Assembly (NCBI GenBank): GCA_963804815.1
Contig: CAWDRU010000002.1
Location: 5,187,122 to 5,251,121, forward strand
Length of the DNA: 64,000 nucleotides
DNA from: Blastocatellia bacterium
Lineage (GTDB): Bacteria > Acidobacteriota > Blastocatellia > UBA7656
Direction: 5' to 3'
Shown here: positions 6,051-59,038 of the stretch, one piece after another
Numbering within the stretch: the stretch's first letter is position 1
How the letters are laid out: every line of letters begins with the position of its first letter
The notes under the pieces: generated by a model
Told to the model about the DNA's origin: nothing
Databases searched by the model: none
What the model saw: only the letters and a program-made list of their open reading frames with translations
Translations under genes and position numbers: made by a program

Positions 6051-6060
6051 CATCACGCGC

Positions 6061-6097
6061 GAACGGCTGAGGGCGCAGCCGGTTCGCTTTTCTTTTC
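6061..6097 (+). terminator. Second rho-independent terminator-like hairpin
   Basis: GAACGGCTG / CAGCCGGTTC stem followed by GCTTTTCTTTTC. Confidence 0.55.
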
Positions 6098-6151
6098 TGA
6101 TGTCGTCTATTCGGTTGGGCAGCCTCCCGTAAATCAATTGGAATTCAGCTT

Positions 6152-41758: not shown

Positions 41759-42080
41759 CCTGAGTCTCCGATTGAATGAAAATAAGCGGGCACGCTTCTT
41801 ATTATTATTAGAAACGCAGATGGCGGCTGGTTGCAAGCGCTTTATCAACGCATTCGTCTTGTCTGATGGGGAATGAAGTAGTGAAGTTGATTGATTGCTC
41901 CAAACGGGTGCTGAGTATGTATGCCCGGATGCGCGTTCAAAATAGTGAAATGTTTTATTAATTTTCTCATTTCGGTATGTAGCGTATTTACAAACCCGGC
42001 TCGATAGCAAAAAGCAATTAAGTAATTATCCGAGTCTTTCGGCCCGTACTCTGAAACATTTCTGAGACAGGAGATAAATC

Positions 42081-45000
42081 ATGAAGAATCTGCATCACCG
42101 TCCTCACCATAGCCTGCGCAGTTTTCCATACAAGCCTCTGGTATTTTGCCTGTTCACCGCTTTCGTCATCCTATACGTGAATATAGTTCGCGGAGAAGAC
42201 GACAAAAAATTGATTTTCACACCAGCTGCCGTAACTATTGAGGCCGGAAAACCCGTCCCGCTGCCGGTGGCCAAACTGGGGAGTGACACTGTAGACCAGA
42301 AAAAGCTTGCGCTTGATGATAAACAGCTGACACTGGACTCCAACAAACTGGAACTGAAAGTTAAGGACACGGCCCTCCCCATCTTTGCGGATACAACGAA
42401 AGAAATAAAGATCACTTATCAGAAAGACGCGGCATCGGCGATTGTCAGCGGCTCGATCAATGTCACGATCAAAGCCACCAGAAATACGCTTTTCACTTCC
42501 TCTGAGGCGTCTCTTGAGGTCGGGAAACCGGCAACGCTAAAACTGAGTGATAATACAGACAAGAATAAGCTCCAGTCTTTTGATGATAAGGTGTTGAAAT
42601 TTGATCCTGACAAACTGGAACTGAGCGTCAGTTCGGATTATGTGGCCTTCAGCAGTGCAACAAGGAAGATAAATATCCAGTATAAGCAAGATGATACGCT
42701 CGTCCCCAGTGAGCCGATCACTGTCACGATCAAAGCCACCAGGAAACCCATTTTTAACTCCGATAAAGTAACCATTGAGGTCGGAAAATCTGCAACGCTG
42801 GAACTGTCCAAGTTGGAAGGTGATAAGATAGATCAAAGCAAACTCCAGCCTTTAAATGAGGCCCCGCTGAAATTTGATCCTGCCAAACTGGAACTGAGCG
42901 TCAGTTCGGATTATGTGGCCTTAAGCGATGTAACAAAGAAGATAAATATCCAGTATAAGCAAGATGAAAAGACTACCATTCCCAGTGAGCCGATCACGGT
43001 TACGATCAAAGCCAACAGGGTTTTGATCGTGAAGGTGGAGGGCGAAATTATCAGCAAGGATCAGGTAGTAGAGTTATATAAGGAAGATAATAAATCAGTT
43101 AAATTGGTTTATTCTGATGGCAAGGCCGAGACTCAAGACAAACCTCCTGCTTTTGTCTTGATAAGCGAGCAACCAAATTTCGTAAAGATAGGAGACAATA
43201 ATAACACCATAATCGGACAAGATGCGGTGAATGGTTCCCGGTCCAAAATTACCGTAAAGATTGGTGATAAGGAACAGCCAGAACTGAGCTTTACAGGCAA
43301 AATTCTGGAATCCATTGACAAAATCGAAGTTACGGATTTGTCCGCGAATGTGGTTGCCGAAGAGGAACACGTAACAGGCAAACTAAAGATTACTGGCTCC
43401 AAAGGGACTATTCTTACTTTTAAAGAGAGGATGATCCCGGTTGATAAAGAGATTATAGACAAAGACCTTGCATCATCTACTAGAGATAATTTAGCTCCTG
43501 CAAGTCAATTGGCTAATGTCACCATAACGGGTGATGTAGTTGAAGTGCGAACGCTATCGTTGCTATTGCCAAATAATCCACGGCTGGCACCAAGTATTCC
43601 ACATCCAGCAGGCTCGGTGAGAAACATAATTATCAAATTTAAAATCAAATCGAAGCCATCGAAAGGCGAAGACAAATATGCTGAGATGGGTTTAAGGATC
43701 ACAGCCAAAGCTGGCTCTATAACTTTTGTGCCTCCTCCGCGAGGATTCCTGATGCCAAGTGGCAGTCTGTCATTTACGGCCTTTGTTATAAGCAAAGAGG
43801 GCGCGACGTTACCAACTCCTTTGACTTTTGATTTTGCGGATCAGTCGCAAAAGCAATGGCTGACTCTGGCTCCCGAAGGAAACAAGATCAATATTTATTG
43901 GAATGAGCCGCCGAAACCTGCACCCGGCAGCCCAAGCAAAGATGTCGTGCGGCCCAGTCAGATAATAATTGTTGCCAAAACAGACGTTGGCGATTCACCC
44001 ATTGTAGGCAGAATTTATATCAGCATGGGAGAGATAACGAAATTCGCTCCGTTGAAAGTGAAACTCAATCCGATGGATGAGCGAATGGCCAGCGACCTTT
44101 ATGGCTCGGTCACGAGCAAAGAATATCACATACTGACGGTTCGCCTGTTCAACAACCTCAAGGATGAAGAGAGCAACCAGTATTTTGGCTCATCCATTCT
44201 CGCCTACAGCGCATCTATAGAAATGGCCGTCGGACTGGAGAAAAAATTCGACGCCAAATCCGGGAGCGATTTCCCAAATGTGATTAGTAAGAAAGCTGCC
44301 GAGGCAATCTCCAGGCAGCAATCTGAGGCCGCCGAGCAGATAGCCCGGGAAAATGCCGTCGAATATGGGAAGCAGGCAGCAGCAGATCAGAAGAAATTGA
44401 AAGACGCAATCAACGTGCTATCCGGGTTGGAGAGCAAGGCAAGCCAGCTTGAGCGCACTGTGCAAATATTGGAGTACGAGATACGGCTCAGGGGAACTAC
44501 CGGCACTGAGCTTCAGAAGAGATTCGAGCAGAAAAGAGAAGAAGCAGCTCAGGCCAGAGAAGAGTCTAATCTGAAGCTTGCCGAAGTGATCGGCCTTAGA
44601 GATTCTATCAATCTGGCGCTTGGAGGCTCAGCCTTTATTCCTCAAAACCCGATGGATGCTATTTTCAGTGAAGCTGTTGTTGACGACGGGAAATGGCACC
44701 CTCTTACTCAAACAGATATGTACCGTATAAGTAATCAGCAGAATACATGGGACGAAGCGATCAGGAAGCGAATCGGGGAGTATAAGCCGGAAGATGAGCC
44801 GACCTGCGTAGGCGTACTGAAGTACAGGCCGTTCACCTTTGAAATGATTGTTAATACGGTTGACAGGCGCGACGACAGAAGCATTCGCTCAAGGGTCTTT
44901 AAAGCGTTTGATCTTTTTGGGACAGGCGTTTCATTTATCACCTCTGTAGCCGTGCCCGGTAAAAACAGCGATCTGCCCCTCGGCCTGGAGAAATATTCCA

Positions 45001-45272
45001 ACCTGCTGTTACCCGGATTAGACACGCTCTTTCCAAGTTTGAAAGAACAGCAGCGACAGAACATAGTCTCCCAGGTAATGAAACCCATAGAAGAGATACC
45101 GTTTGGGTCTGACATTACTCGCGTGCTTTTTATCCCCAAAAAGACTATCAAGGGATTAATTCGGGGACACGATGTCCGAATCAGTGAGATCTGTCCTTAC
45201 TTCTTCAGCATCGAAGTCGCGATTATCAAAAAAGGAGGAGTCGTGCAGGTGGGTTCAACTCCTGCGCCCTGA
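42081..45272 (+). CDS. Large (1063 aa) hypothetical surface or secreted protein: N-terminal TM/signal, three ~90-aa tandem repeats, coiled coil, unknown C-terminal domain
   Basis: LVFCLFTAFVILYVNIV anchor. Repeats end ...INVTIKATR, ...ITVTIKATR, ...ITVTIKANR. Coiled coil around QSEAAEQIARENAVEYGKQAAADQKKLKD. Visibly AT-richer than its neighbours. Confidence 0.6.
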   Translation: MKNLHHRPHHSLRSFPYKPLVFCLFTAFVILYVNIVRGEDDKKLIFTPAAVTIEAGKPVPLPVAKLGSDTVDQKKLALDDKQLTLDSNKLELKVKDTALPIFADTTKEIKITYQKDAASAIVSGSINVTIKATRNTLFTSSEASLEVGKPATLKLSDNTDKNKLQSFDDKVLKFDPDKLELSVSSDYVAFSSATRKINIQYKQDDTLVPSEPITVTIKATRKPIFNSDKVTIEVGKSATLELSKLEGDKIDQSKLQPLNEAPLKFDPAKLELSVSSDYVALSDVTKKINIQYKQDEKTTIPSEPITVTIKANRVLIVKVEGEIISKDQVVELYKEDNKSVKLVYSDGKAETQDKPPAFVLISEQPNFVKIGDNNNTIIGQDAVNGSRSKITVKIGDKEQPELSFTGKILESIDKIEVTDLSANVVAEEEHVTGKLKITGSKGTILTFKERMIPVDKEIIDKDLASSTRDNLAPASQLANVTITGDVVEVRTLSLLLPNNPRLAPSIPHPAGSVRNIIIKFKIKSKPSKGEDKYAEMGLRITAKAGSITFVPPPRGFLMPSGSLSFTAFVISKEGATLPTPLTFDFADQSQKQWLTLAPEGNKINIYWNEPPKPAPGSPSKDVVRPSQIIIVAKTDVGDSPIVGRIYISMGEITKFAPLKVKLNPMDERMASDLYGSVTSKEYHILTVRLFNNLKDEESNQYFGSSILAYSASIEMAVGLEKKFDAKSGSDFPNVISKKAAEAISRQQSEAAEQIARENAVEYGKQAAADQKKLKDAINVLSGLESKASQLERTVQILEYEIRLRGTTGTELQKRFEQKREEAAQAREESNLKLAEVIGLRDSINLALGGSAFIPQNPMDAIFSEAVVDDGKWHPLTQTDMYRISNQQNTWDEAIRKRIGEYKPEDEPTCVGVLKYRPFTFEMIVNTVDRRDDRSIRSRVFKAFDLFGTGVSFITSVAVPGKNSDLPLGLEKYSNLLLPGLDTLFPSLKEQQRQNIVSQVMKPIEEIPFGSDITRVLFIPKKTIKGLIRGHDVRISEICPYFFSIEVAIIKKGGVVQVGSTPAP
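42210..43020 (+). repeat. Three tandem coding repeats (~270 bp each) inside the 1063-aa ORF
   Basis: CTGGAACTGAGCGTCAGTTCGGATTATGTGGCCT recurs at about 42616 and 42889. The GAGCCGATCAC.GT.ACGATCAAAGCCA motif recurs at about 42709 and 42988. Confidence 0.75.
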
Positions 45273-47244: not shown

Positions 47245-47571
47245 CTATTCAACCTTGAGCATCTTCTTAATCTTCTTTATCTCAGCCGGTTTCAAGTTGA
47301 CTATTTTCCTAATGACAGTAATCAGGCTTTCGGCAGTCCAGGAATCTTCCGGTTCGCCCACCTCGGCAGCAGCCTTTAATACTTCAATCGGCTCAACGTC
47401 CAATCCCTTAGCCAATGCAAGCAGAGTTTTGAGCTTCGGGTTATCGGCATTTCCAGCGAGGATGGTGGCAACATGAGCATCGGTAATCGTATATCCGCTG
47501 TTGCGTTCAATATCCAGCCTGGAAAGATTCTTTTCTTCCATCCGTAAACGGACGAACTCAGCTAGGTTCAT
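47245..47571 (-). CDS. XRE-family HTH protein
   Basis: MNLAEFVRLRMEEKNLSRLDIERNSGYTITDAHVATILAGNADNPKLKTLLALAKGLD. Confidence 0.7.
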   Translation of the reverse strand: MNLAEFVRLRMEEKNLSRLDIERNSGYTITDAHVATILAGNADNPKLKTLLALAKGLDVEPIEVLKAAAEVGEPEDSWTAESLITVIRKIVNLKPAEIKKIKKMLKVE

Positions 47572-48276: not shown

Positions 48277-48521
48277 CTTTAGTAGTAAGTATAGCAAATC
48301 CAGTTTGGCGGGGCTGTGGATAAGTCAGTAAGGTTCGATGTAGAATTGTTCTCTGTTATTACAAGTACAGGAGACAATTTACAATCGCCGCCGCCACCGA
48401 CTGTACCTTGACTTTTGCTGTAGATCGTAATAGAAACTACACCCTATAGCCCGCCTCTGAATTGAGCAGAGGGAGAGCAAACTTCAATTTGGCATGTATT
48501 ATTGCTCGGAGGTATTCCGAC

Positions 48522-50930
48522 GTGTTGCACGATTGCAGGAACGCCATACGCCTGATCTCTAAAAACTGGGGATTCGCAGCTATAGTCGCGCTTACGCTTG
48601 GTCTGGGCATAGGCGCAAACACTGCTATCTTCACTGTAATAAACAAGGTCCTCTTACAGCCTTTGCCTTACCATCATCCTTCGCAACTGGTGATGTTACA
48701 GGCGGTAAGAACCGGAGGCGATTTTGGCACGCTCGGCATGTCGGTGCCCGACTTTTTAGATTACAGAGATCAAAACAGGTCATTCGATTATCTGGCTGCG
48801 ATATCCTCAATAGGCATGAATTTGTCAGGCGCGGTTGAACCTGTCAGGGTGCAGGGAACCCGCGTATCGTCCGGCTTCTTCTCCATGCTCGGTGTGAACC
48901 CGCTGAAAGGCAGACTCTTTTTGCCGGAAGACGAGAAAGCCGGGGCAGAGCGTATCGTCATGCTGAGCTTTGGCTTATGGTCAACCAGTTTTGGCTCTGA
49001 TGAGAAGATATTTGAAAAGAAGGTTCTGCTCGATGGTGAAAGCTATAGCGTAGCGGGCGTGATGCCTCCTGATTTCCGCCCTCCCTTTGCGCGAGCCGAT
49101 ATCTGGGTGCCTTTCAGCGTAGACCTGTCAAAGACGACACGCGACACGCGCCACATCAGAGTTATAGGCAGGCTGAAGCCGGATGTGAGTCTTCCGGCGG
49201 CAGAATCCGAACTGACTTCGCTGGCAGCACGCCTCGAACAGGAATACCCTCAAACAAATGCGAAAATCGGAGTGAAGGTATCAAGCCTTCACAGTTTTCT
49301 TGTAAGAAACGCCAGAACAACAATCCCCGTTTTATTAGGCGCAGTCGCCTTCGTCCTGCTCATAGCCTGCGCAAACGTCACAAATCTACTTCTGGCCAGA
49401 GGCGGCGCGCGCAGAAAGGAGATGCTAATCAGGACTGCGCTCGGAGCCAGCCGCGCGCGCATCATAAGGCAGTTGCTGACGGAAAGTCTTTTTCTGTCGT
49501 TTGCGGGCGCAATCATCGGGATACTGCTGGCGCATTGGGGGACGCGAATGCTCGCCACCTCGTTGCCCAATTTCATAAGCGACTCTATCCCGGCGCTCAA
49601 GGATTTGAGTTTAGACTGGACAGTGCTGCTTGCGACAATCTTCCTGTCGGTGCTCGCAGCCGTGATTTTCGGGCTGACTCCTGCGCTCAGAATATCGGCC
49701 CCTAACCTCAGCCGTCTTGTCAGAGAAAGCGGCGTGGTTTCAGACAGAGGCGGAATGAAGCTTGGCGGATTGCTCGTAGTTTTAGAGATAACTCTGACTC
49801 TGGTGCTGCTGACGGGAGCAGGGCTAATGATCAAGAGCTTTTACAAGCTTGTGGGCGGAGATCAGGGATTCAATCCCGAAGGCTTAATAACCATGCGGCT
49901 GTCGCTTCCCGTGTCAAAGTACAAAGAGGCGGCTCAGGTCAAGAGTTTCATCGATAACTTAATCGAGAAGTCCCGCTCGACTCCGCTTGTGCAGTCGGCT
50001 GCCGTTATAAGCGAAGTCCCCTTCTCTAACAGTAATTCCTCTGACATATTCGCCATAGAAGACTGGCCCAGCAGTTCAACTGCCGACCGCCCCATTATCA
50101 AATATCACAGCGCCGGAGAGGGCTTTTTTAAAGTCTTCGGGCTTCCGTTACTGGAAGGCGTGGATTTTTCAGATGTAGACAGGGAAGATTCGCAGCGCGT
50201 CGTCATAATAAACCGCCGCGCGGCTGATCGCATCTGGCCGGGCGAATCACCTATCGGAAAGCGCATAAGGTTCGACCGCAGATCTTTTCCCTGGTGCACG
50301 ATTGTCGGAGTCGTGGGAAATGTCAAGCATTCGGGTCAGGATAACAATGAAGAACCGGAAGCATATTTCCCGATCAGCCAGTTGCCCGTCCGCAACCTCA
50401 CGCTGGTAGTCAGAACGGCATCCGATACCAGCAGCGTGGCAAACGCCATTCGGGAGGTCGTCGTGGCCGAAGACCCGGATCAGCCTTTATACGATATACA
50501 GACAATGGAACAGGCAATCTCGGACTGGGCAGTATCTCAGCGATTGACGAGCTGGCTGCTCGGAGTGTTCGCCTGTATAGCTATGGTTTTGGCCGCGACA
50601 GGCGTATACGGCGTCATGTCTTATTCGGTCGCGCAAAGAACGAAAGAGATAGGGCTGAGGATGGCGCTTGGCGCGGGAAGGATACGCATGCTTCAGATGT
50701 TCCTTTATCGAGGCGCTCGCATCACTTTAGTAGGGATAGCAGTCGGAGCAGCCGGGGCCATTGCCTGTACAAAAGCCATGTCAGCCCTGCTTTATGACGT
50801 GCAGGCGTTTGATCTACAGGTCTTCGTAACCGTTTCACTGGTGATCGCGCTTATCTCTGTGATAGCGATTCTTATTCCTGCTTACAGGGCCACCAGAGTA
50901 GACCCTATGGAAGCGCTCAGACAGGATTGA
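48522..50930 (+). CDS. ADOP-type duplicated MacB/FtsX permease (no adjacent ATPase)
   Basis: GGAGG (48508-48512) then GTG 48522. VLHDCRNAIRLISKNWGFAAIVALTLGLGIGANTAIFTV N-terminus. Two FtsX modules. C-terminus ATRVDPMEALRQD. Confidence 0.8.
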   Translation: MLHDCRNAIRLISKNWGFAAIVALTLGLGIGANTAIFTVINKVLLQPLPYHHPSQLVMLQAVRTGGDFGTLGMSVPDFLDYRDQNRSFDYLAAISSIGMNLSGAVEPVRVQGTRVSSGFFSMLGVNPLKGRLFLPEDEKAGAERIVMLSFGLWSTSFGSDEKIFEKKVLLDGESYSVAGVMPPDFRPPFARADIWVPFSVDLSKTTRDTRHIRVIGRLKPDVSLPAAESELTSLAARLEQEYPQTNAKIGVKVSSLHSFLVRNARTTIPVLLGAVAFVLLIACANVTNLLLARGGARRKEMLIRTALGASRARIIRQLLTESLFLSFAGAIIGILLAHWGTRMLATSLPNFISDSIPALKDLSLDWTVLLATIFLSVLAAVIFGLTPALRISAPNLSRLVRESGVVSDRGGMKLGGLLVVLEITLTLVLLTGAGLMIKSFYKLVGGDQGFNPEGLITMRLSLPVSKYKEAAQVKSFIDNLIEKSRSTPLVQSAAVISEVPFSNSNSSDIFAIEDWPSSSTADRPIIKYHSAGEGFFKVFGLPLLEGVDFSDVDREDSQRVVIINRRAADRIWPGESPIGKRIRFDRRSFPWCTIVGVVGNVKHSGQDNNEEPEAYFPISQLPVRNLTLVVRTASDTSSVANAIREVVVAEDPDQPLYDIQTMEQAISDWAVSQRLTSWLLGVFACIAMVLAATGVYGVMSYSVAQRTKEIGLRMALGAGRIRMLQMFLYRGARITLVGIAVGAAGAIACTKAMSALLYDVQAFDLQVFVTVSLVIALISVIAILIPAYRATRVDPMEALRQD

Positions 50931-52109
50931 TCAGGTAAGAGCGCAGTCGGATGCAATAGTCTGCTCTATAAGCTCAGCGGCGCGGCGCGCGCCGCCCGCC
51001 CGCTCGAATCCGTGTTTCAATCTTTGCGCGCGTTCCCTCAGGTCAGAGCTTGTCAAAAGTTTATCTACGCTGCTTTCGATCAATCCGGCATCTACAGTCG
51101 TTGCATAAACGCGCAAGGCCGCCCCGGCCTTTTCACAACGCTCGGCTATGTCGTCAGACCCGCTGCCGGAAGGAAAGAATAAACTTGGAAGACCATGTAT
51201 CAACGCTCCCAGAACCGAAGTTGTATGCGCGGTGCTTATTACGGCTGAGCAATAAGGTAAGACCTTGCCCAGAGGCACATGTTCGCGTATGAAAAAATTT
51301 CCGGGCGTGCTGCCTACCTCTTCGTCCATCCGCCCCACATCGGCCACCACTCGGATGGGTTTATCTCTTAAAGCATCGCACAGTTTCGCCCAGAATCCCT
51401 GCATGGTAAAAGACCGGCCCTGCTGCACGTAGATGACAGGTTCGGCGGCAGCTTTCGCCTCTTCAAGCCACGCCGATAATTCCGGGTCCGAAGATGCCGG
51501 TTCCCAGCCGCAGCTTCCAACAAAATGTAGATTCGATGGAAAGTCGTATCGGCTCTGTTCCAGTTCCGGGACGCTCTGGAGTAAGTAGAGATCGCCAAGC
51601 ATTGGGTTCGATAGATGATCCGCGTCGCTCGCCGAAAGGCCGAGCGCGCGGCGGGCGTTATTGTAATGAGACATCATATCCCCGTATCGCCATTGTGTCT
51701 CTTTCTCGATGCGGGTTTCAGGCTCGTAATCCAACGGCCAGAGCGGCCATAAATAAGCGGCCAATCCTAAAACGACAACCGGCAACCGGGTGATCTCGCC
51801 CGCTATGAGCGGGCCGAGCGTAAGCTGCGTTGTTACGAGCGCGTCAGCCTGAAACCGCTCAAGCGCATACTGAATATGTTTAACCTGAATGGCAACGGCT
51901 AACGGCTTGGTCCAGTTCCTGACCTCAAAGCTGGTCAGGTCTTTTGTGCCACACGGAATGCGGGAAAACTCCACCTGATTGAGGGTCTCGGAAAAAGCGG
52001 AGTCGGTGACAAAGCTGACTTCGTGCCCCTGCAACCGCGCAGCCTCGGCCAGCCCGATAAGCGGGTAAACAAAACCGTGGCTGGCAAGTGGGCAGAATAG
52101 ATATCTCAT
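50931..52109 (-). CDS. GT1-family (GT-B, MGT/UDP-glycosyltransferase-like) glycosyltransferase
   Basis: MRYLFCPLASHGFVYPLIGLAEAARLQGHEVSFVT is a typical MGT-type N-terminus. The C-terminal nucleotide-sugar region is TTSVLGALIHGLPSLFFPSGSGSDDIAERCEKAGAA. Starts 5 nt after the upstream gene's stop. Confidence 0.75.
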   Translation of the reverse strand: MRYLFCPLASHGFVYPLIGLAEAARLQGHEVSFVTDSAFSETLNQVEFSRIPCGTKDLTSFEVRNWTKPLAVAIQVKHIQYALERFQADALVTTQLTLGPLIAGEITRLPVVVLGLAAYLWPLWPLDYEPETRIEKETQWRYGDMMSHYNNARRALGLSASDADHLSNPMLGDLYLLQSVPELEQSRYDFPSNLHFVGSCGWEPASSDPELSAWLEEAKAAAEPVIYVQQGRSFTMQGFWAKLCDALRDKPIRVVADVGRMDEEVGSTPGNFFIREHVPLGKVLPYCSAVISTAHTTSVLGALIHGLPSLFFPSGSGSDDIAERCEKAGAALRVYATTVDAGLIESSVDKLLTSSDLRERAQRLKHGFERAGGARRAAELIEQTIASDCALT

Positions 52110-52113
52110 GATT

Positions 52114-54213
52114 TTATGCTTTCAGCGCAACGAGCCTTTGATTACTCTCTGTCAGCAGGAAATCTGTCAGCGCGCCAAGCGCCGTAGCGGTTGTGAAATA
52201 ACTGTTATGATCGGCAACCAGCACGCCAAGCCCCGTGCCCGAACCTTGCGACCACTGTTTGTTCTCCCACGGATTCAGGTCGCCTGCATTCGGTATGCGA
52301 AGCATCGGTCGGGAATCGAAGCTGCCGTTGCGGTTCTGAAAGTTGAGCAACCAGACGATGCCGCGCGCAACGGCCTGCTTTACATCAGGAGTTCTGACCC
52401 TGATGAGCATAAGCGTTCTGAGCGCCAGCGCGGTTTCAAAGGCGAGATTTTTGCCCGTCGTATCAAGTCCCCAACACCCCTCGGCTGACTGCTTTTGCAG
52501 TATGCTTTCCGACATCCCTTTAACATCGGACTCCGTCAGCCGATAGCCTGTCTTTATCAGCGCGCGCGTGCTGTAGAAAGTGGCGTACATCTGCCCGTCC
52601 CACCAGAAAGCCTCCCAGATGCGATCATCTCCCCATACCTTTTTTATGAAGTCAGTGGCTCGGATGACCGATTCATCCGACGGCGCGACGCCGAGCTTTA
52701 ATAGAGTATCTACCGCAACGGCAGTTACCTCGACGTGGCTCATCCCGTATGACTGAAAGCCGCTTCTTCCCTGCGCGGGGATGGTGAAAAACCCGCCGTC
52801 TTCCTGCTGAAACCCCGATACGAGCGCGATAAGTTCCTGCTTTTCCTTCTCGCTGATCTGGCAGGTAGAGACCATGAAGTTCACTACCCACGCAGTCGTG
52901 TCTGCGTCTTCGGGCACGTTCCTCAGACACGGCCATCCTATCGCCTGTTTTTCACTGATGAGCCAGTCGCGCATTCTCTCCAGCAAAGCGGGCAGGCCGC
53001 GCGTCTTTCTTATGCCTTTTATTTTAGAACCCGGCATCTGCCATTCTCTGAGCGCCGCGCCTACATACGCGCTCACCCAGATCGGCAAGGTCTCGCCAAA
53101 CGCCATGAAATCTTCATAGAAGCCCTTCGCCTTGACGAGAAAATCGCAGGCGTCTGCGGCTGCATCCGAAATCCGTCTGGGCGTTTTCCAGACCGGATGA
53201 GCGCAACTGTTCGAGCCGTTGCCGTTCGATGACAGGGTGTATTCGTGAGTGCGGGTTTGCAGCAATGCTTCGCGCGAATGCATGGATACTTCGGAGCGCA
53301 CGCTGTGGACGCCCATCAACAGCGAATCTATAAGGTCTTTCCAGTGGGGACAGTTTATGCCTTCGACCTTCTTTTTTGCCTCCGTACAGTAGCGCGCAAG
53401 CTTGCGAAGATAATCTTCCGCAAATCCCGAAAGGTACAGATATTTTCCTATCAGGCTGATGCGGTCTTCGGGGCTGAGAGAAGCCAGTTTGCCCTGTAAG
53501 TTGCAGGTGGTGATCGTCTGCGTGAGCAGGTAGGTGTATCTCTCGGCTTTAAGGTCTTCCTTCCAATCCTTGAAATCGTCAAACAATTGTTCGGCGGCAT
53601 AGTATAGGTCGAGCGAGTCTTCGAGAGGCTTGCGCAGTTCTTCCTGCCCGGACACAAGGCACAGCGAGACGACTATGATCTTGGCCATGGCGGATTTGCG
53701 CGAAAGGACTCTGATTATGTCCCGGCTCGAATACTGTTCTATCTGACCTTTGTGAACCCCGTTTTCAAGCAGGATAGCCTGACTGTACTGGCGGAAGAGT
53801 CTATCTAAATCTTTCCATGGCAGCGGCTGCCCGTCGAAGACTTCCGAGAGCGTAGCAAAGGCGGCCATTTGAAATGAGTTGCTCGCAATAACTCCTGCCG
53901 CGCAATGCGCGCCCGCCTCGTCGATCATCTCGTCATTGATGAGCAGTTGATAAAGCATCAACAGCCCAGTGAGCGCCAGTTTCTGTTTCTTTTCGCGCGC
54001 TGTGTCCGGGAAAGCATCAGAAAACAGGAACGGGAAATAGGCGTAAAAACTGTTTCCCACTTCTGCTCCGCGCAACTCACGAATGTGTTTGGAGAGGATC
54101 GGGTCATCAAGACCGGGAATGGTCTTTCTTATCTTGTTGAATTCATCCCATGCACGCTTGCCTTCGACCCGCAGGCCCGCAGTGGATATCTCTCTGATAA
54201 TTCTGCCAGTCAT
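52114..54213 (-). CDS. Fusion protein: N-terminal isoprenoid-synthase-fold (polyprenyl synthase / ComQ-like) domain plus C-terminal squalene-hopene-cyclase-like (prenyltransferase/SQHop repeat) domain
   Basis: N-terminal Asp-rich motifs LINDEMIDE (53917-53937) and LFDDFKD (53566-53580). C-terminal VPEDADTTAWVV (DADTTA at 52891-52908) aligns with the SHC motif DxDDTA. QW-like repeats QQEDGGF, QSAEGCWG, QNRNGSF. Confidence 0.65.
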   Translation of the reverse strand: MTGRIIREISTAGLRVEGKRAWDEFNKIRKTIPGLDDPILSKHIRELRGAEVGNSFYAYFPFLFSDAFPDTAREKKQKLALTGLLMLYQLLINDEMIDEAGAHCAAGVIASNSFQMAAFATLSEVFDGQPLPWKDLDRLFRQYSQAILLENGVHKGQIEQYSSRDIIRVLSRKSAMAKIIVVSLCLVSGQEELRKPLEDSLDLYYAAEQLFDDFKDWKEDLKAERYTYLLTQTITTCNLQGKLASLSPEDRISLIGKYLYLSGFAEDYLRKLARYCTEAKKKVEGINCPHWKDLIDSLLMGVHSVRSEVSMHSREALLQTRTHEYTLSSNGNGSNSCAHPVWKTPRRISDAAADACDFLVKAKGFYEDFMAFGETLPIWVSAYVGAALREWQMPGSKIKGIRKTRGLPALLERMRDWLISEKQAIGWPCLRNVPEDADTTAWVVNFMVSTCQISEKEKQELIALVSGFQQEDGGFFTIPAQGRSGFQSYGMSHVEVTAVAVDTLLKLGVAPSDESVIRATDFIKKVWGDDRIWEAFWWDGQMYATFYSTRALIKTGYRLTESDVKGMSESILQKQSAEGCWGLDTTGKNLAFETALALRTLMLIRVRTPDVKQAVARGIVWLLNFQNRNGSFDSRPMLRIPNAGDLNPWENKQWSQGSGTGLGVLVADHNSYFTTATALGALTDFLLTESNQRLVALKA

Positions 54214-54223
54214 AAAGCTCTTG

Positions 54224-55657
54224 CTATTCCAGATCGAGCCGCGCGGTTACAGGCGCTTTAGAAAAAGGCGTGTTCATCCATTGCAGGAGCTTGTTGTCGG
54301 CTCGTAAGCGCATCGGAGACGTAGACGAAGGGTCCATATTGACCTTCTTAATCCGCAGCCCGTTTTTTACCTTCACCTCTGTATAGTCGATGTAGCCGAT
54401 CCCTCTGACTCCCCAGAAATCAACCAGCTTCAACGTACGATCTCCGCCATCCTCATCCGCCTTCACAAGCGAAGAGACCGGTGCCAGCGCCTCGATCACC
54501 CTTGCGCCTGCTCCCCACTCTCCGTTGAAGAACTTCGTAGAGCGATCAGCATATTTATCGACGATCTCGAAATCATCCGTGCCCAGAAGCACTCGAAGAT
54601 TCTTTGTGGCAAATTCTTCGTAATACTTCCATTCCGCCGGGTCGTAGCTGTTTGCTTTGTCCCACAAAAAATTGTGAGTCTGGTTGAAGGGCCGCATCAA
54701 CAATTGCACACGCACTTTATCGTCGTTTTCAAGCGTTACGACTACGTTGCAGGCTTCGATGTTTACCTCTGGCAGCTGTCTGGTCAGAAAGAGTCCCTTG
54801 GGATTGAGCCTGTCGTTGCCGAAGACGACCGGCTGCAAACTCGCGATTGCGACAGCCGCTATGCCCCAGCCCAGGATCTGTCTGCCTGTGATGGCAAAGC
54901 TTGCCTGCTTATCGGATTTAGTCGATGTGATGACAAAAGGCATCGCTAGAAAGACCACTACTAACAAAATCATATGCGGCAGGTGCCTGTTGGGGTTGAT
55001 CACCCCTTCTCCAAAACCCGCGCTGAGCATGATGATGCTCTGGAAGCTCATGATGATTACACAGGGAAAGATCAGGACCGCAGTGACCAGCGCAAGACGC
55101 TGGCGGTATGTGACGGTTGGAAAATCGAACGAGACCTGACGAAAGATAAGCCGGAAGAAACTTATGATCAATATTACGTTGAAGACCAGCCATAAACATT
55201 TTACAGTGACCTGAAAAGCGAACGGAAATCCCAGCATCGCGAGCGCCTGACCCGTCTCTTTATAATTCCTGCGCCACGGCGGAAAGACCCCTGTCATGTT
55301 TATAACCATCAATGCCGAAACGCCGCCCACAAGCGCCCAGATTAAGCGCGCCCTGTTCCCCTTTACACCCACGGCTATGATTACCAGAGCAAGGACCGCG
55401 ACCAGAAAATTGAAGACAGGCCCGGCAAGCAACACCAGCGCCTCTTTCCACGACTGGGAGCCAAGAGGGAAGTAAAAAATGCTTCTTCCGCCATCGGCAT
55501 CTACGGCTATAAAGGGGAAATAGCCTCCAAGTGAGACTGCCGTCAGGCCGTGCGCCATCTCGTGAAAGAAGGTGAGAACCTGAAAGACGCCGTAAAGCAG
55601 AAAGGTCATCAAAATTGCTAAGGCAAGGTATTTTTTATTTATCTCTGTGATCCTCAT
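54224..55657 (-). CDS. M50-like integral membrane zinc metalloprotease with C-terminal soluble domain
   Basis: HEMAHGLTAV (HExxH) in the first TM region, about 8 TM segments, and a soluble C-terminal domain of about 200 aa. The start overlaps the upstream gene's stop (ATGA). Confidence 0.6.
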   Translation of the reverse strand: MRITEINKKYLALAILMTFLLYGVFQVLTFFHEMAHGLTAVSLGGYFPFIAVDADGGRSIFYFPLGSQSWKEALVLLAGPVFNFLVAVLALVIIAVGVKGNRARLIWALVGGVSALMVINMTGVFPPWRRNYKETGQALAMLGFPFAFQVTVKCLWLVFNVILIISFFRLIFRQVSFDFPTVTYRQRLALVTAVLIFPCVIIMSFQSIIMLSAGFGEGVINPNRHLPHMILLVVVFLAMPFVITSTKSDKQASFAITGRQILGWGIAAVAIASLQPVVFGNDRLNPKGLFLTRQLPEVNIEACNVVVTLENDDKVRVQLLMRPFNQTHNFLWDKANSYDPAEWKYYEEFATKNLRVLLGTDDFEIVDKYADRSTKFFNGEWGAGARVIEALAPVSSLVKADEDGGDRTLKLVDFWGVRGIGYIDYTEVKVKNGLRIKKVNMDPSSTSPMRLRADNKLLQWMNTPFSKAPVTARLDLE

Positions 55658-56955
55658 ATGGCCCTTCTCTGGAATGTTTTCTTCAACAGCTTGAACAGAG
55701 TATTTTTCAGGATGGCGAACACAAACAAGAGGAAAAACAGGTTCATAAAGAGCTTGAGAACGCTTATGAGAAAAGGCGCAGTCCCTCTGTTGCCCACCAG
55801 ATCACGCGCGCTTGCCACGGTCGCAAAAACCTTGTCCGGGGTAAATATGAGCAGCAGCACTATGAATGTGGAAAAGAAGGCGATGCTCAGGAAAGAGTAG
55901 GTCGCCAGGACAAATTTACGCCCCTGACCTTTCACCTCTTTGAATGTGGGCATATCCTCTGCGAACCCAAGGCTCCAGAGAACCATCTCTTTGACAACTT
56001 TCCATGATCTTTTTTTAAGATTAATCAATCCCGTGAGATCGACCAGTAACCAGTAGCCATCGAATTTCAAGAGCGGGTTGAGCGACAGCAGCGCCAGTGC
56101 GTCTACTGAATAGATGGCGGCAGCGCAATAATTGCTTCCGGTGATGGCGAATACCAGAAACAGCGGTATGACAGTAATCAGTTGAAAATATATCCCTCCA
56201 ATATCGATCACTGCGCGCTGACGCCCGGAAAGCCTCCAGGCATCGGAAAGATTCACATAGAAAGCCGGGAAGATGATATAGAGGAGCAGCCCTATGCCGC
56301 CAGTCGTACACTTGTAGTTTCTACACGCGGCTGCGTGCCCGATTTCATGAAAGAGTGCAGTCAAAAGCACGAGCCCGTAACAGAACAGATATTGCCAGGC
56401 GCTCAGATTTGTAGTCTGCCGTGGCCGCAGCCAGCCTCCGTAGAATGCAAAATGCGCGAGGATAAACCCCACGATGGCGATTGCGCAAATCCCCGGTTTG
56501 TATAGCCACGTGAATCTGTCTGCCATCCGCATCGCAAGCTGCGGTTTTATCAGTACGATCTTGAAGATAAAGTCGAGCGGCTTTATCACCACCGATTTCG
56601 CATCCGCAACGCGCGGTTTCACGCTTTCACAGCTTGCGGCTTGCTGAACCGTCTCTACCAACCCGTAGGGCAATAGATAAGTATCTATCACATTCCTGAT
56701 CTTTTCAGGGGTTACCAGAGCGTTTTCGAGTCGGGATACTTCAAGAGCAATCTGCTCCAGATCGCGCGCTCCATCGAGCATCAGGAGAATGTCTCTCAAT
56801 CTCTCGGAGAGCATTAAAGACCGTCCCTGCTCAGTTTTTGCTACGTATTGAGGGCTTGAAGCGCATGAGTCGAGCGGCAGAACCTGAAGGCCAGGAACCA
56901 TTTTGAAGACTATCTGCACATCGGCTGGGGCCAGTGTGTTTGTTACCGCAGACAT
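55654..56955 (-). CDS. M50-like integral membrane zinc metalloprotease with N-terminal cytoplasmic winged-helix/RRE-like region
   Basis: LFHEIGHAAACRNYKC (HExxH) within a polytopic membrane domain. The N-terminal ~120 aa are soluble (RLRDILLMLDGARDLEQIALEV...). Confidence 0.6.
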   Translation of the reverse strand: MSAVTNTLAPADVQIVFKMVPGLQVLPLDSCASSPQYVAKTEQGRSLMLSERLRDILLMLDGARDLEQIALEVSRLENALVTPEKIRNVIDTYLLPYGLVETVQQAASCESVKPRVADAKSVVIKPLDFIFKIVLIKPQLAMRMADRFTWLYKPGICAIAIVGFILAHFAFYGGWLRPRQTTNLSAWQYLFCYGLVLLTALFHEIGHAAACRNYKCTTGGIGLLLYIIFPAFYVNLSDAWRLSGRQRAVIDIGGIYFQLITVIPLFLVFAITGSNYCAAAIYSVDALALLSLNPLLKFDGYWLLVDLTGLINLKKRSWKVVKEMVLWSLGFAEDMPTFKEVKGQGRKFVLATYSFLSIAFFSTFIVLLLIFTPDKVFATVASARDLVGNRGTAPFLISVLKLFMNLFFLLFVFAILKNTLFKLLKKTFQRRAI

Positions 56956-56979
56956 TATTTCACCCCTGGATGTTGACCG

Positions 56980-57033
56980 GGAAAAATCAGGGATACCTCT
57001 CTGGGGGAGATGTTACAAGCCAGAGAGGTATCC
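56980..57033 (-). terminator. Intercistronic hairpin with U-tract between the precursor gene and downstream enzymes (attenuator-like)
   Basis: Perfect 14-bp stem GGATACCTCTCTGG (56991-57004) / CCAGAGAGGTATCC (57020-57033). On the minus strand it is followed by CTGATTTTTCCC. A second 9-bp hairpin lies at 57065-57089. Confidence 0.55.
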
Positions 57034-57097
57034 GCAATTAATTAGTCAAGGAAAGGAGTATCCCGGTTCATTGGGAAAAACAATGAACCAACTACAC

Positions 57098-57349
57098 CTA
57101 ATTTTCTACCACATCCGGCAGTTCAGGATTACGCCCGCCACCGCCACCGCCGCCACCCGGTCCAACCGGCTGAGGATTAGTTGGAGAAGCGAACGTGCCG
57201 CATTCTGCACCGCAATCCCAGCAGCCTTGCGCTTCGGTCACATGCAGAAGCTGGAGCTCAAGTCTCTCTTCAAGGTCTTCTATGCTGAGGTTGGCCAATA
57301 CATCATCATTCAGCGGCTGAATCTCAAGATTCTCTGCTTTCTTTTTCAT
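57098..57349 (-). CDS. Candidate RiPP precursor peptide (83 aa)
   Basis: GGAGG RBS 8 nt before the ATG. Leader-like MKKKAENLEIQPLNDDVLANLSIEDLEERLELQ. Core-like LLHVTEAQGCWDCGAECGTFASPTNPQPVGPGGGGGGGGRNPELPDVVEN. Lies directly downstream of the rSAM/SPASM gene. Confidence 0.65.
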   Translation of the reverse strand: MKKKAENLEIQPLNDDVLANLSIEDLEERLELQLLHVTEAQGCWDCGAECGTFASPTNPQPVGPGGGGGGGGRNPELPDVVEN

Positions 57350-57466
57350 TAGTTTACCTCCATTGGGTTTTTTTCATATTGTTAGAGGTTGATGATTGGG
57401 CGCTGTCATAAAACTGGTTGAATGCCCCCGCCAATAGCGCATTCACCACAAAGATGCTGTATCGGA

Positions 57467-59038
57467 TTAATGGCCAAAGCTGGCTTCAACCGATGGCGCA
57501 TCCCGGTCGAGACCTCCCTGCAAAGCCTGATCAATGCCTTTCTTGAAGAAAGCCTGACCCGCGTACAGAAAGTTGTCTTGGAATTCGTAGCATGCGGGGC
57601 CGAATATCGTCCCCTTAACCCCTATCGGCAAAGAGGCGCAGCCGCCAAAGTGGAAGAAGGCGTACTTGCAGTTCTTACATTCGTCGATGGTTGCCGGAGA
57701 CCGCGTAAGCCAGTCGTCATTCCTGCCGTTTAAGGCAGGCCCGGCAGGCGAGTATGTGCCGGTCTCATGCCCGACCATCCCTACTGTGTCCCAGCACGTA
57801 TAAATCTTCCAGAACGGGTCGAAGATATACAGGCCCGTCGTAGCCGCGCATGGCTCGATGCCCTTGGCATAAAGGCCCGGCAGCTTATCTTTTACATAGG
57901 CTTTCAGCTTCATTTCGATGCCTTCATCAGAAGCCAGCACTTTCAACTCTCTGCCGCGCGCGATCTGTTCGCCTTGAGCGTAGATGGGCAACGAGCGGGC
58001 CTCGATCATCGGTTCCAGTTCCCTTTGCATATGGTGAATTGCCATCAGCGGGTAGTCAGGGTTTGCCTGCCCCTTATGAAAGTTATGCACGGGATAGGTG
58101 TAGACTTCAAAGTTGTCGTGTTCGTGAAAACCTTCGCTCTCAAGGTCATCTATGAGCGTTTTCACCTGCGATATGTTTTTGAAGTCTACATGGAAACGTA
58201 TCGAAACATGTGCCCCGGTCGGAAGCGCCTTCTTTATATTGCTGATGATCATGTCGTAAGTGCCCTGTTTGTACCGGGGGCCGACACGCTTTTTATTGTG
58301 GATTTCGCGCGGGCCATCAAGCGTGATCTGAAGGAAGCCTATCTTGTCCGGGCCTAGAAGGTGGATATAGCGGTCCAGGTCAACGGCATTTGTGATAGCG
58401 CCGAATTTGTAACCCTGCTTTAATCCTTTATCAATTATATACTCCACTATCGGCACAGTTTCGGCCATAAGCGGTTCGCCGCCATACAGAGTTATGTACT
58501 TCGTGTTATCACTGAGAGCCTCGCTTTTGGCTCCGAGCCGCTGCTTGACGAGGTTGTCCATACTGTCGAAAGCGGCGTCCACCATCGTCTCTGTCATCAC
58601 CTTCTGGAGCACTTTGAGCTTTCCCAGCTCTATACGCGTATCCGTCTCGAAACAGTAAGGGCAACGCAGATTACACTCATAGCTGGGGACCATCATGAAT
58701 CTGGGACGGAACCCCTTCACGTTTCTGTCGTGCAGGAAGCCCGCAATATGTTCAACGTAGTTCAATTCTTCCGCCGAAGACATGGTCGTCAGGTAACCCC
58801 GGCTTTTCAGCATGCCGATCGTGTCATCCGACACCTCGCCGAGTTCTCTGCCACAGAGCGCTTCTCTGACAATCTCCTGGTCTTTTATGTGCCAGGTGTG
58901 GTCAGGATCAACGCGCTCCAACAGATAATTGGCAACTTCGGCTGACACCAGGTCAACGGCTCCCGTATAGCCATGAACCAGATAGAATTCGTCGTTTTCA
59001 GAAACGTGAAAAAAGATGATGTAGTTACTCGTCTTCAT
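57467..59038 (-). CDS. Radical SAM / SPASM-domain peptide maturase with N-terminal RRE-like domain
   Basis: CNLRCPYC (CxxxCxxC, 58652-58675). GGEPL motif. C-terminal Cys-rich SPASM-like region (CAATTG..., YTCWD, CKNCKYAFFHFGGC, GPACYEF). About 110 aa lie ahead of the rSAM core. Confidence 0.85.
   Translation of the reverse strand: MKTSNYIIFFHVSENDEFYLVHGYTGAVDLVSAEVANYLLERVDPDHTWHIKDQEIVREALCGRELGEVSDDTIGMLKSRGYLTTMSSAEELNYVEHIAGFLHDRNVKGFRPRFMMVPSYECNLRCPYCFETDTRIELGKLKVLQKVMTETMVDAAFDSMDNLVKQRLGAKSEALSDNTKYITLYGGEPLMAETVPIVEYIIDKGLKQGYKFGAITNAVDLDRYIHLLGPDKIGFLQITLDGPREIHNKKRVGPRYKQGTYDMIISNIKKALPTGAHVSIRFHVDFKNISQVKTLIDDLESEGFHEHDNFEVYTYPVHNFHKGQANPDYPLMAIHHMQRELEPMIEARSLPIYAQGEQIARGRELKVLASDEGIEMKLKAYVKDKLPGLYAKGIEPCAATTGLYIFDPFWKIYTCWDTVGMVGHETGTYSPAGPALNGRNDDWLTRSPATIDECKNCKYAFFHFGGCASLPIGVKGTIFGPACYEFQDNFLYAGQAFFKKGIDQALQGGLDRDAPSVEASFGH

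Follow-up and report, generated by a model that had tools for sequence, protein, structure and literature searches.

Here, we describe a six-gene operon in a 64,000-nt stretch of DNA (hereafter the window) from a Blastocatellia bacterium (GenBank assembly GCA_963804815.1, contig CAWDRU010000002.1, forward-strand positions 5,187,122 to 5,251,121). We consider it fairly probable that it encodes a peptide made by the ribosome and modified after translation (RiPP) of a Blastocatellia-type soil Acidobacterium that is cross-linked by a radical S-adenosylmethionine (rSAM) enzyme, carries a cyclised terpene and is probably glycosylated. This reading is built on gene content, on synteny and precursor conservation over three phyla, and on the fold and catalytic motifs of each domain in a fusion enzyme.

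A terpene enzyme within a RiPP pathway is already known. ChrPC and NctPC are bifunctional RiPP maturases in which a prenyltransferase (P) domain is joined to a cyclase (C) domain of MstE type (Hubrich et al. 2024, Chem 10:3224, as described in a review of 2026, PMC13290415). According to this review, the P domain of ChrPC resembles enzymes of the trans-isoprenyl diphosphate synthase type (trans-IDS) and uses C10-C20 donors for the prenylation of an internal Trp; the C domain then cyclises the chain. The product of a ChrPC-type pathway has been named steromaze (PMC13647313). The initial annotation of the window, an earlier note on the same DNA, had it that no RiPP class with a class II terpene-cyclase-like domain was described; ChrPC and NctPC contradict this (PMC13290415), and the claim of an undescribed class is out of date because the ChrPC-type architecture, published in 2024, equals that of the window fusion. 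The remainder seems to be uncharacterised, namely that such an enzyme is consistently paired with a SPASM maturase, with two HExxH membrane proteins, with a GT1 glycosyltransferase that recurs and with an ADOP permease. New, as far as checked, is a coherent family that leader, rSAM/SPASM, paired HExxH proteins and fusion enzyme define, together with its occurrence in three phyla, its recurrent glycosyltransferases, Tyr-for-Trp precursors and an acidobacterial clade with a poly-Gly tail.

Gene content and organisation

The operon comprises the following genes (lengths in amino acids, aa; ORF, open reading frame):

57467-59038, minus strand: rSAM/SPASM maturase, 523 aa, intact ORF
57098-57349, minus strand: precursor peptide, 83 aa, intact ORF
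55654-56955, minus strand: HEx1, HExxH membrane metalloprotease 1, 433 aa, intact ORF
54224-55657, minus strand: HEx2, HExxH membrane protein 2, 477 aa, intact ORF
52114-54213, minus strand: fusion enzyme 'PC', predicted peptide prenyltransferase-terpene cyclase, 699 aa, intact ORF
50931-52109, minus strand: GT1 (GT-B) nucleotide-sugar glycosyltransferase, 392 aa, final gene of the operon

The ORF calls agree exactly with the six minus-strand genes and spacings of the initial annotation. HEx1 and HEx2 overlap by 4 nt, HEx2 and the fusion gene are separated by 10 nt, and the fusion gene and GT1 by 4 nt; the precursor gene is flanked by spacers of 117 nt and 142 nt. The annotated domains largely hold as well, i.e., Pfam and NCBIfam yield Radical_SAM/SPASM, two HExxH proteins, a terpene-type fusion and GT1. 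The proposal that rSAM/SPASM maturase, leader-core peptide, HExxH pair, terpene fusion and GT1 are co-transcribed as a RiPP operon is supported by synteny, and the six genes almost certainly form one such operon.

Conservation of the gene set in related loci

We fetched the neighbourhoods of homologues of the fusion enzyme and of the precursor, which gave 15 further distinct loci, and compared them by tblastn with the window proteins. Thirteen are from Blastocatellia, Pyrinomonadaceae and Terriglobia metagenome-assembled genomes (MAGs) and from unassigned metagenomic contigs (L001, L003, L004, L006, L007, L009-L013, L015-L017); L014 belongs to a Melioribacteraceae MAG and L018 to Ktedonosporobacter rubrisoli, a cultured Chloroflexota species. 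Wherever a locus covers them, the genes follow one another as rSAM, precursor(s), HEx1 (usually with HEx2) and fusion; this holds for 12/12 loci that reach upstream of the precursor (L001, L004, L006, L009, L011, L012, L013, L014, L015, L016, L017, L018). In all of these 12, the rSAM homologue stands beside a conserved short peptide, a neighbourhood on which the initial annotation had made its proposal depend, and the Cys-containing precursor(s) lie directly downstream of the rSAM gene. The recurrence of this arrangement in 15 further loci, in which the fusion enzymes are between 91% and 23% identical to that of the window, goes far beyond what chance would give. Further out, the neighbouring genes differ entirely among the loci; the nearest genome match, a Blastocatellia MAG (L009, 91% identity), has the same flanks as the window.

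Hopanoid or carotenoid loci, which had been named as the competing home of the fusion enzyme, were not encountered: it sits in a peptide context in 15/15 loci examined. Still, the operon might be split into two unrelated neighbours, namely an rSAM peptide with its HExxH proteases and an MstE-like pathway for a small-molecule terpenoid glycoside. Such a split would fit the fact that MstE and the myxobacterial proteins 8pak/8paj are not known as peptide enzymes, and that the nearest solved relatives of GT1 glycosylate small molecules. We regard it as very improbable, given that the fusion gene follows HEx2 after 10 nt within the same operon and is linked to the same leader precursor, rSAM and HEx1 in 15 loci of three phyla while the surroundings change. 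Furthermore, neither aromatic small-molecule acceptor genes nor a UbiA-type prenyltransferase gene is present in any examined cluster, and ChrPC provides a precedent for a peptide substrate (PMC13290415). That the fusion enzyme acts on the peptide is thus our reading, and we hold it to be very likely.

Several loci show individual features. The L018 cluster (CP035758.1, ~3,944,300-3,951,060) comprises an rSAM gene and six precursor genes (...PLWDCGCDSDC...) as well as genes for a fusion enzyme of 741 aa and a HExxH protein of 454 aa, and a gene for a Pyr4-type membrane terpene cyclase is found near it. In L015 (17801-19880), two more genes follow the ADOP gene, one for an additional single-domain cyclase of SQHop type that stands alone (322 aa) and one for a GT4; the additional cyclase suggests further terpene tailoring. 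The Terriglobia locus L013 carries an ORF of an insertion sequence-type transposase with integrase core between the precursor gene and HEx1 (6052-6774), which may disrupt expression of the operon there. In L009, the precursor frame shifts within the GGN repeat coding for the poly-Gly tail (6786-7165), and HEx1 and the fusion gene each align as separate pieces. These frame breaks are probably long-read homopolymer or repeat errors and not real pseudogenes.

The precursor family

The 83-aa precursor of the window is divided as follows:

57227-57349, minus strand: leader M1-Q41 (...LNDDVLANLSIEDLEERLELQLLHVTEAQ), from translation and conservation
57101-57226, minus strand: predicted core (GCWDCGAECGTFASPTNPQPVGPGGGGGGGGRNPELPDVVEN), from translation, core boundary inferred
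57218-57220, minus strand: W44, the sole Trp of the window precursor, two residues into the predicted core

The leader is common to the precursors of every related locus and follows the pattern ...LNDDVLANLSIEELEERLE[L/M]Q[I/L]LH..EAQ. In short form its consensus reads LSIEELEERLE..EAQ, after which a Cys-rich core opens with C[W/Y]DC or W/F-C. Invariant precursor residues are D16, A19, L21-I23, L26, E27, L30, E31, E39, Q41, C43 and C46, such that C43 and C46, just after the leader, are the sole invariant residues of the core. A profile search finds the leader in 124 protein clusters; no Pfam or NCBIfam model matches the precursor in the copies searched. Some loci hold several precursor copies (two in L011, four in L016, six in L018).

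The cores start as follows:

Window and its clade: GCWDCG..
L013: ACWDC
L003: ACYDC
L011: FCYDC
L010 and L012: WCL..
L014: CWIVIC
L018: LWDCGC, in one paralogue LYDCDC

In each of these cores, the first Cys thus has an aromatic neighbour, mostly Trp and sometimes Tyr. The Cys content of the cores ranges from three (window) up to ~20, the latter in CxxxC repeats. In the subfamily of the window (also P0180, P0187, P0191), a short Cys region is followed by a Ser/Thr/Pro stretch and a poly-Gly run. The precursor sites with Tyr for Trp are L003 1-252, L011 6200-6937, L016 5263-6370 and L018 9749-9904, and include paralogues within one cluster.

The fusion enzyme

The following elements were located in the fusion enzyme:

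~53254-54213, minus strand: P domain, predicted trans-IDS fold
53920-53937, minus strand: NDEMID, first Asp-rich motif, in the P domain
53566-53589, minus strand: QLFDDFKD, second Asp-rich motif, in the P domain
52117-53175, minus strand: C domain, MstE-like single-domain class II cyclase
52894-52908, minus strand: DADTT acid motif, in the C domain

In Pfam, the fusion enzyme matches SQHop_cyclase_C and Prenyltrans. A single-sequence search of the C domain (residues 347-688) against PDB returned 8pak (5.7e-31) and MstE (5e-22), and a profile of 13 sequences returned, over the full length, 8pak (3.6e-54), 8paj (1.5e-52) and MstE (2.5e-36). The AlphaFold2 model of the whole fusion (predicted local distance difference test score, pLDDT, 83.7) superposes on 8pak, 8paj and MstE with Foldseek target-normalised template modelling (TM) scores of 0.82-0.84. 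The stretch P-x-D-A-D-T-T-x-W is invariant and its DADTT aligns with the DADTT of MstE, so MstE D109 (mutated in 6sbd and 6sbe) most probably corresponds to window D438. A LanC-like identity of the toroid domain, or one as protein-prenyltransferase beta subunit, was rejected, with cyclases at 1e-54 vs. geranylgeranyltransferase II (GGTase-II) beta at 0.02.

For the P domain, a separate AlphaFold2 model (residues 1-335, pLDDT 83.7) was searched with Foldseek against PDB and found proteins of trans-IDS fold only, with TM scores of 0.6-0.75. Among them, the indole prenyltransferase Ord1 (9v4g), an all-alpha farnesyltransferase, is ranked second, and geranylgeranyl diphosphate (GGPP), hexaprenyl and octaprenyl synthases reach up to 0.75. 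A PDB profile search of the domain gave a non-significant E ~0.85, in which the Asp motifs were aligned to a polyprenyl synthase. The first Asp-rich motif is degenerate, i.e., NDEMID in the window and [N/D/Q/A]DxxxD family-wide with D94 and D98 invariant, and the second, Q209-x-x-D212-D213-x-x-D216, is invariant. Altogether, D94, D98, Q209, D212, D213, D216, W217, D436, D438, T439 and T440 are invariant in 13 fusion sequences, and the first six are kept even in P0014 and P0015, two distant relatives that share the P domain only. A pair of Asp-rich motifs, the second of which is directly preceded by a conserved Gln, is described in PMC13290415 and PMC12510300, and Q216 and D219 of Ord1 are proposed there to hold the indole N-H. 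Their Q-x-x-D spacing equals that of window Q209/D212.

We rather favour Trp44 as the acceptor of the prenyl group. Alternatively, the prenyl could go to an invariant Cys (S-prenylation) or to a site independent of Tyr/Trp and be cyclised thereafter, with the rest of the pathway unchanged. This would be in accordance with C43 and C46 as sole invariant core residues next to an aromatic position that varies (W, Y, L, W or F shifted across the Cys), and with weak matches of the C domain to protein geranylgeranyltransferase beta subunits and Pfam Prenyltrans. Yet the first Cys has an aromatic residue beside it throughout, the core Cys are the expected rSAM substrates, and the relatives of the toroid are cyclases rather than prenyltransferase beta subunits by the E-values given above. 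In addition, ComQ, PalQ, the ChrPC P domain and Ord1 all act on indole (PMC13290415), such that we consider a Cys or other acceptor quite unlikely.

A HMMER scan of 1.84 billion representatives with the fusion profile returned 595 proteins below 1e-30, stand-alone cyclases included. Most of the best 150 representatives are full-length P + C fusions of 640-740 aa from several phyla. Among the 30 fusion representatives looked up by name, Melioribacteraceae, Marinimicrobia and Ktedonosporobacter are present. P0014 and P0015 (870-910 aa) share the P domain only (26-29% identity, conserved FDDLxDWxED), fused to a different C-terminal region of ~500 aa; they may represent another type of prenyltransferase fusion.

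The rSAM/SPASM maturase

Three features of the maturase are of relevance:

58652-58675, minus strand: CX3CX2C motif (C122/C126/C129; CNLRCPYC), sequence motif
57590-57850, minus strand: SPASM region with invariant C397, C415, C454, C457, C467 and C483
57650-57652, minus strand: His463, at the fifth SPASM Cys position in the CX2CX5CX3C stretch

The Pfam Radical_SAM match has an E-value of 5.4e-12. Across 10 aligned orthologues, six of the seven SPASM Cys do not vary; at the fifth position, Cys occurs solely in L014, the Melioribacteraceae locus. His463 at this position may be an unusual ligand of the auxiliary cluster. The closest NCBIfam relatives are TIGR04463, CefB, Clo7bot, FlmE/OhkG, PapB and SCIFF, all maturases of Cys-rich peptides, and the sole PDB sequence match is CteB (5wgg). 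Because of these nearest curated families and of CteB as only PDB sequence match, thioether chemistry is the likeliest, and we lean towards an rSAM enzyme that makes Cys thioethers. A RiPP recognition element (RRE), sought in residues 1-111 with Pfam and NCBIfam, gave only a marginal N-terminal match to FlmE/OhkG (E = 0.047).

The enzyme could also form a C-C or C-O cross-link with the aromatic residue or the terpene, or epimerise, with the Cys forming disulfides or binding metal. The score far under the cut-off of every thioether-maturase family, the unusual His within CX2CX5CX3C and cores with up to ~20 Cys in CxxxC repeats, which resemble metal-binding peptides, are what one would expect then. 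On the other hand, Cys-rich peptides are the substrates of the six best curated relatives, of which those that have been characterised form S-C bonds; two Cys are invariant right after the leader, and Cys-rich cores co-vary with the rSAM over three phyla. We therefore rate this chemistry as unlikely and keep to thioethers in the following.

The HExxH membrane proteins

The two proteins carry their motifs at the following positions:

56335-56349, minus strand: HEIGH of HEx1, residue 203
55550-55564, minus strand: HEMAH of HEx2

Hydropathy of HEx1 indicates a soluble N-terminal region of ~140 aa followed by about five hydrophobic segments. It is present in all 15 related loci and is a homologue, not a member, of the NCBIfam family daptide_HExxH (NF041824; 3.8e-31, 108.6 bits, cut-off 300); for YydH/LiaK (NF058609) we observed 9.9e-14 and 51.6 bits (cut-off 225). 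Pfam and PDB sequence searches gave no match for HEx1. An RRE search of its N-terminus found nothing, and a PqqD-like winged helix seen by eye at residues ~50-100 is unsupported. HEx2 shows about seven hydrophobic segments and then a soluble C-terminal domain of ~200 aa that has no family match in Pfam. Its matches to Peptidase_M50 and M50B are weak and below cut-off, and those to RseP-type site-2 proteases in PDB are weak, too. The label of an M50-like protease pair, as initially annotated, thus fits HEx2 weakly, and HEx1 is rather a HExxH metalloprotease of daptide/YydH-LiaK type.

In L017 (11659-14385), HEx1 and HEx2 are fused into a single 908-aa 'Rosetta stone' protein, which suggests that the two work together as a complex. 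It is rather likely that the pair cleaves the leader off after EAQ, the putative cleavage site.

Probable glycosylation and the flanking permease

GT1 matches the Pfam families EryCIII-like_C (46.9 bits, cut-off 31.7) and Glyco_transf_28 (28.8 bits, cut-off 26.2), both above cut-off, and NCBIfam MGT at 1e-31 with 110 bits, below the cut-off of 260. Its solved PDB relatives CalG1, CalG4, CalG2, OleD/OleI and YjiC are natural-product glycosyltransferases. GT1 orthologues are found in or beside the cluster at varying position in L001, L004, L006, L009, L012, L016 (38%) and L017 (34%), and GT4 genes in L015-L017. Since GT1/GT4 genes recur at differing positions, glycosylation seems to be a recurrent optional tailoring step, and the glycosyltransferase of the window likely acts on the operon's product. 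Loci with GT1 tend to have short Cys regions and polar tails, which are Ser/Thr/Pro-rich in the window clade; this hints at the tail as possible sugar acceptor. The sterol-like terpenoid may be the acceptor instead.

Next to GT1 lies a permease gene:

48462-50930, plus strand: ADOP-family duplicated MacB/FtsX-type permease, TIGR03434, convergent with the operon

It scores 925 bits for the ADOP family (TIGR03434, cut-off 622), and its stop codon abuts that of GT1 at 50930/50931 with zero intergenic bases. The ADOP match is also indicative of a host among the Acidobacteriota. An ADOP gene directly adjoins the cluster in nine loci including the window, with varying position and orientation. The permease had been annotated as an orphan MacB-type protein; its recurrence beside the clusters lends weight to the proposed association, and ADOP permease is the better name. 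Orthology of the ADOP proteins across distant loci was rejected, given 29-39% identity vs. 37% to an unlinked paralogue in the window. Because distant cluster-linked ADOPs are no closer than this paralogue, the link to the cluster rests on recurrent adjacency only. We give even chances to the permease exporting the product or conferring immunity. The second ADOP-type permease of the window is encoded at 39326-42010 on the minus strand; the two genes lie within 12 kb, and their products are 37% identical.

The flank opposite the ADOP gene is an M36 fungalysin. A role of this protease, as suggested at first, finds no echo among the loci, of which L009, nearly identical to the window (91%), is the sole one to carry it next to the cluster; the protease was rejected as cluster member.

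Proposed maturation and points against it

Taken together, the pathway could run as follows. The precursor would be recognised via its conserved helical leader (LSIEDLEERLELQ...EAQ), and the rSAM/SPASM enzyme would cross-link the core Cys (GCWDCGAEC), most likely by thioethers of sacti/ranthipeptide type. The trans-IDS-like domain would then move a C10-C20 prenyl, probably geranylgeranyl, onto Trp44 beside the first Cys, and the MstE-like cyclase would protonate the distal double bond via the Asp of DADTT to yield a polycyclic terpenoid. GT1 might attach a sugar to the terpenoid or to Ser/Thr of the Ser/Thr/Pro-rich tail. Finally, HEx1 and HEx2 would act together at the membrane to cut off the leader after EAQ, and the ADOP permease would export the product or shield the producer.

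A number of observations weigh against this pathway. The chemical steps, their order, the acceptor residues, the prenyl length and the cleavage site are all deduced from genes. The P domain has no significant Pfam match (even at E = 10) and no PDB sequence match, so its assignment rests on predicted structure and motifs, and Gln-x-x-DDxxD is also typical of genuine chain-elongating synthases. Likewise, the window fusion is likened to ChrPC by the published description of the architecture, not by sequence. With regard to the acceptor, Trp is not universal at the proposed position (Tyr in L003, L011, L016 and one L018 paralogue), and all characterised trans-IDS-like peptide prenyltransferases require Trp, as stated in PMC13290415. 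The rSAM is below every curated cut-off (best 112.5 bits vs. 525) and member of no named equivalog, and His463 replaces the fifth SPASM Cys in all acidobacterial-type members (L001, L004, L011-L013, L015-L017). Concerning the later steps, GT1 is absent from L003, L011, L013 and L014, and ADOP genes are frequent in the host genome, with those next to the clusters not demonstrably orthologous.

As to the final product, we tentatively picture, with more doubt than confidence, a thioether-cross-linked peptide that bears a polycyclic diterpenoid on its aromatic residue and the GT1 sugar, i.e., a lipid anchor similar to a sterol glycoside, with the Tyr paralogues prenylated on Tyr. If true, Tyr prenylation by a trans-IDS-like domain would break the Trp-only rule of the enzyme class.

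Relation to known systems

Like ChrPC, the window fusion unites two parts in one polypeptide, a trans-IDS-like domain at the N-terminus and a single-domain class II cyclase of MstE type at the C-terminus, and is encoded beside a ribosomal precursor with an internal Trp (across the family W or Y). The predicted chemistry is equal, too, i.e., Trp prenylation with a C10-C20 chain followed by proton-initiated cyclisation. In contrast to ChrPC, some precursors of the window family have Tyr at the presumed acceptor, and the host phylum is Acidobacteriota, with the published source organism assumed to be another, as 'Chr' presumably stands for Chryseobacterium. No Chryseobacterium was among the 30 fusion representatives looked up, and the matches from the one scan of a genome collection were all Acidobacteriota.

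MstE (merosterolic acid synthase, Scytonema) and the myxobacterial 8pak/8paj share with the C domain the alpha/alpha-toroid single-domain class II fold (TM ~0.82) and the DADTT-type motif. The substrate of MstE, which is a stand-alone enzyme, is a small aromatic acid bearing a geranylgeranyl chain, whereas the window domain is fused to a prenyltransferase within a peptide operon. The all-alpha trans-IDS-like indole prenyltransferases ComQ/ComX, PalQ and Ord1 resemble the P domain in predicted fold, Asp-rich motifs and a peptide Trp as probable acceptor. They differ by the lack of a fused cyclase, by the first Asp-rich motif, which is [N/D/Q/A]DxxxD in the window family, and by sequences without significant similarity to the window P domain.

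Sacti/ranthipeptide maturases (CteB/SCIFF, PapB, CefB, TIGR04463) equally combine radical SAM and SPASM with a Cys-rich substrate encoded immediately downstream; the window rSAM differs in falling below all their cut-offs, in His463 for one SPASM Cys and in being joined with terpenoid and sugar tailoring. The proteases of daptide MpaP type and of YydH/LiaK epipeptides are, like HEx1, polytopic HExxH proteins in RiPP operons, and 343 residues of the daptide model are matched by HEx1. HEx1 is below cut-off, however, and usually paired, once fused, with the M50-like HEx2 that bears an extra soluble domain.

Ribosomal peptides with cyclised terpenes have been on record only since 2024, and we found two characterised enzymes cited, ChrPC and NctPC. 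The family presented here is easy to mine via its shared leader (124 precursor clusters), rSAM/SPASM, paired HExxH proteins and fusion enzyme in at least three phyla. It offers genetically encodable, steroid-like and possibly glycosylated lipid anchors for peptides, and its natural Trp-to-Tyr variants allow for probing acceptor specificity. Since Ktedonosporobacter rubrisoli is cultured, sequenced and carries a related cluster, the chemistry of the family is directly testable. Acidobacteriota are a dominant soil phylum from which few characterised natural products are known, and the operon adds a concrete specialised-metabolite pathway for them.

Transcript features, GC content and further observations

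One transcript feature was identified within the operon:

56986-57091, minus strand: two RNA hairpins in the 142-nt spacer, directly 3' of the precursor stop codon, from folding energy

Their stems comprise 11 and 14 bp. The minimum free energy (MFE) of the region is -51.2 kcal/mol compared with -35.3 +/- 3.3 for shuffles (z = -4.84), and 0/200 shuffles fold as stably. The hairpins are candidates for an attenuator or a transcript stabiliser, which may raise the precursor transcript relative to the enzymes. A promoter and terminator scan gave counts no higher than the shuffled expectation.

The cluster had been annotated as lower in GC than its surroundings. Its GC content is 52.3%, as against 53.6% in the remainder of the window, and 28% of windows of equal size have less, such that neither this claim nor a horizontal transfer based on low GC was retained. 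The lowest-GC stretch of the window (~45-46% vs. 53% average) harbours a 1063-aa ORF without Pfam match (42081-45272, plus strand), with a small HTH_3 gene nearby (47245-47571); the region of this ORF may be foreign DNA.

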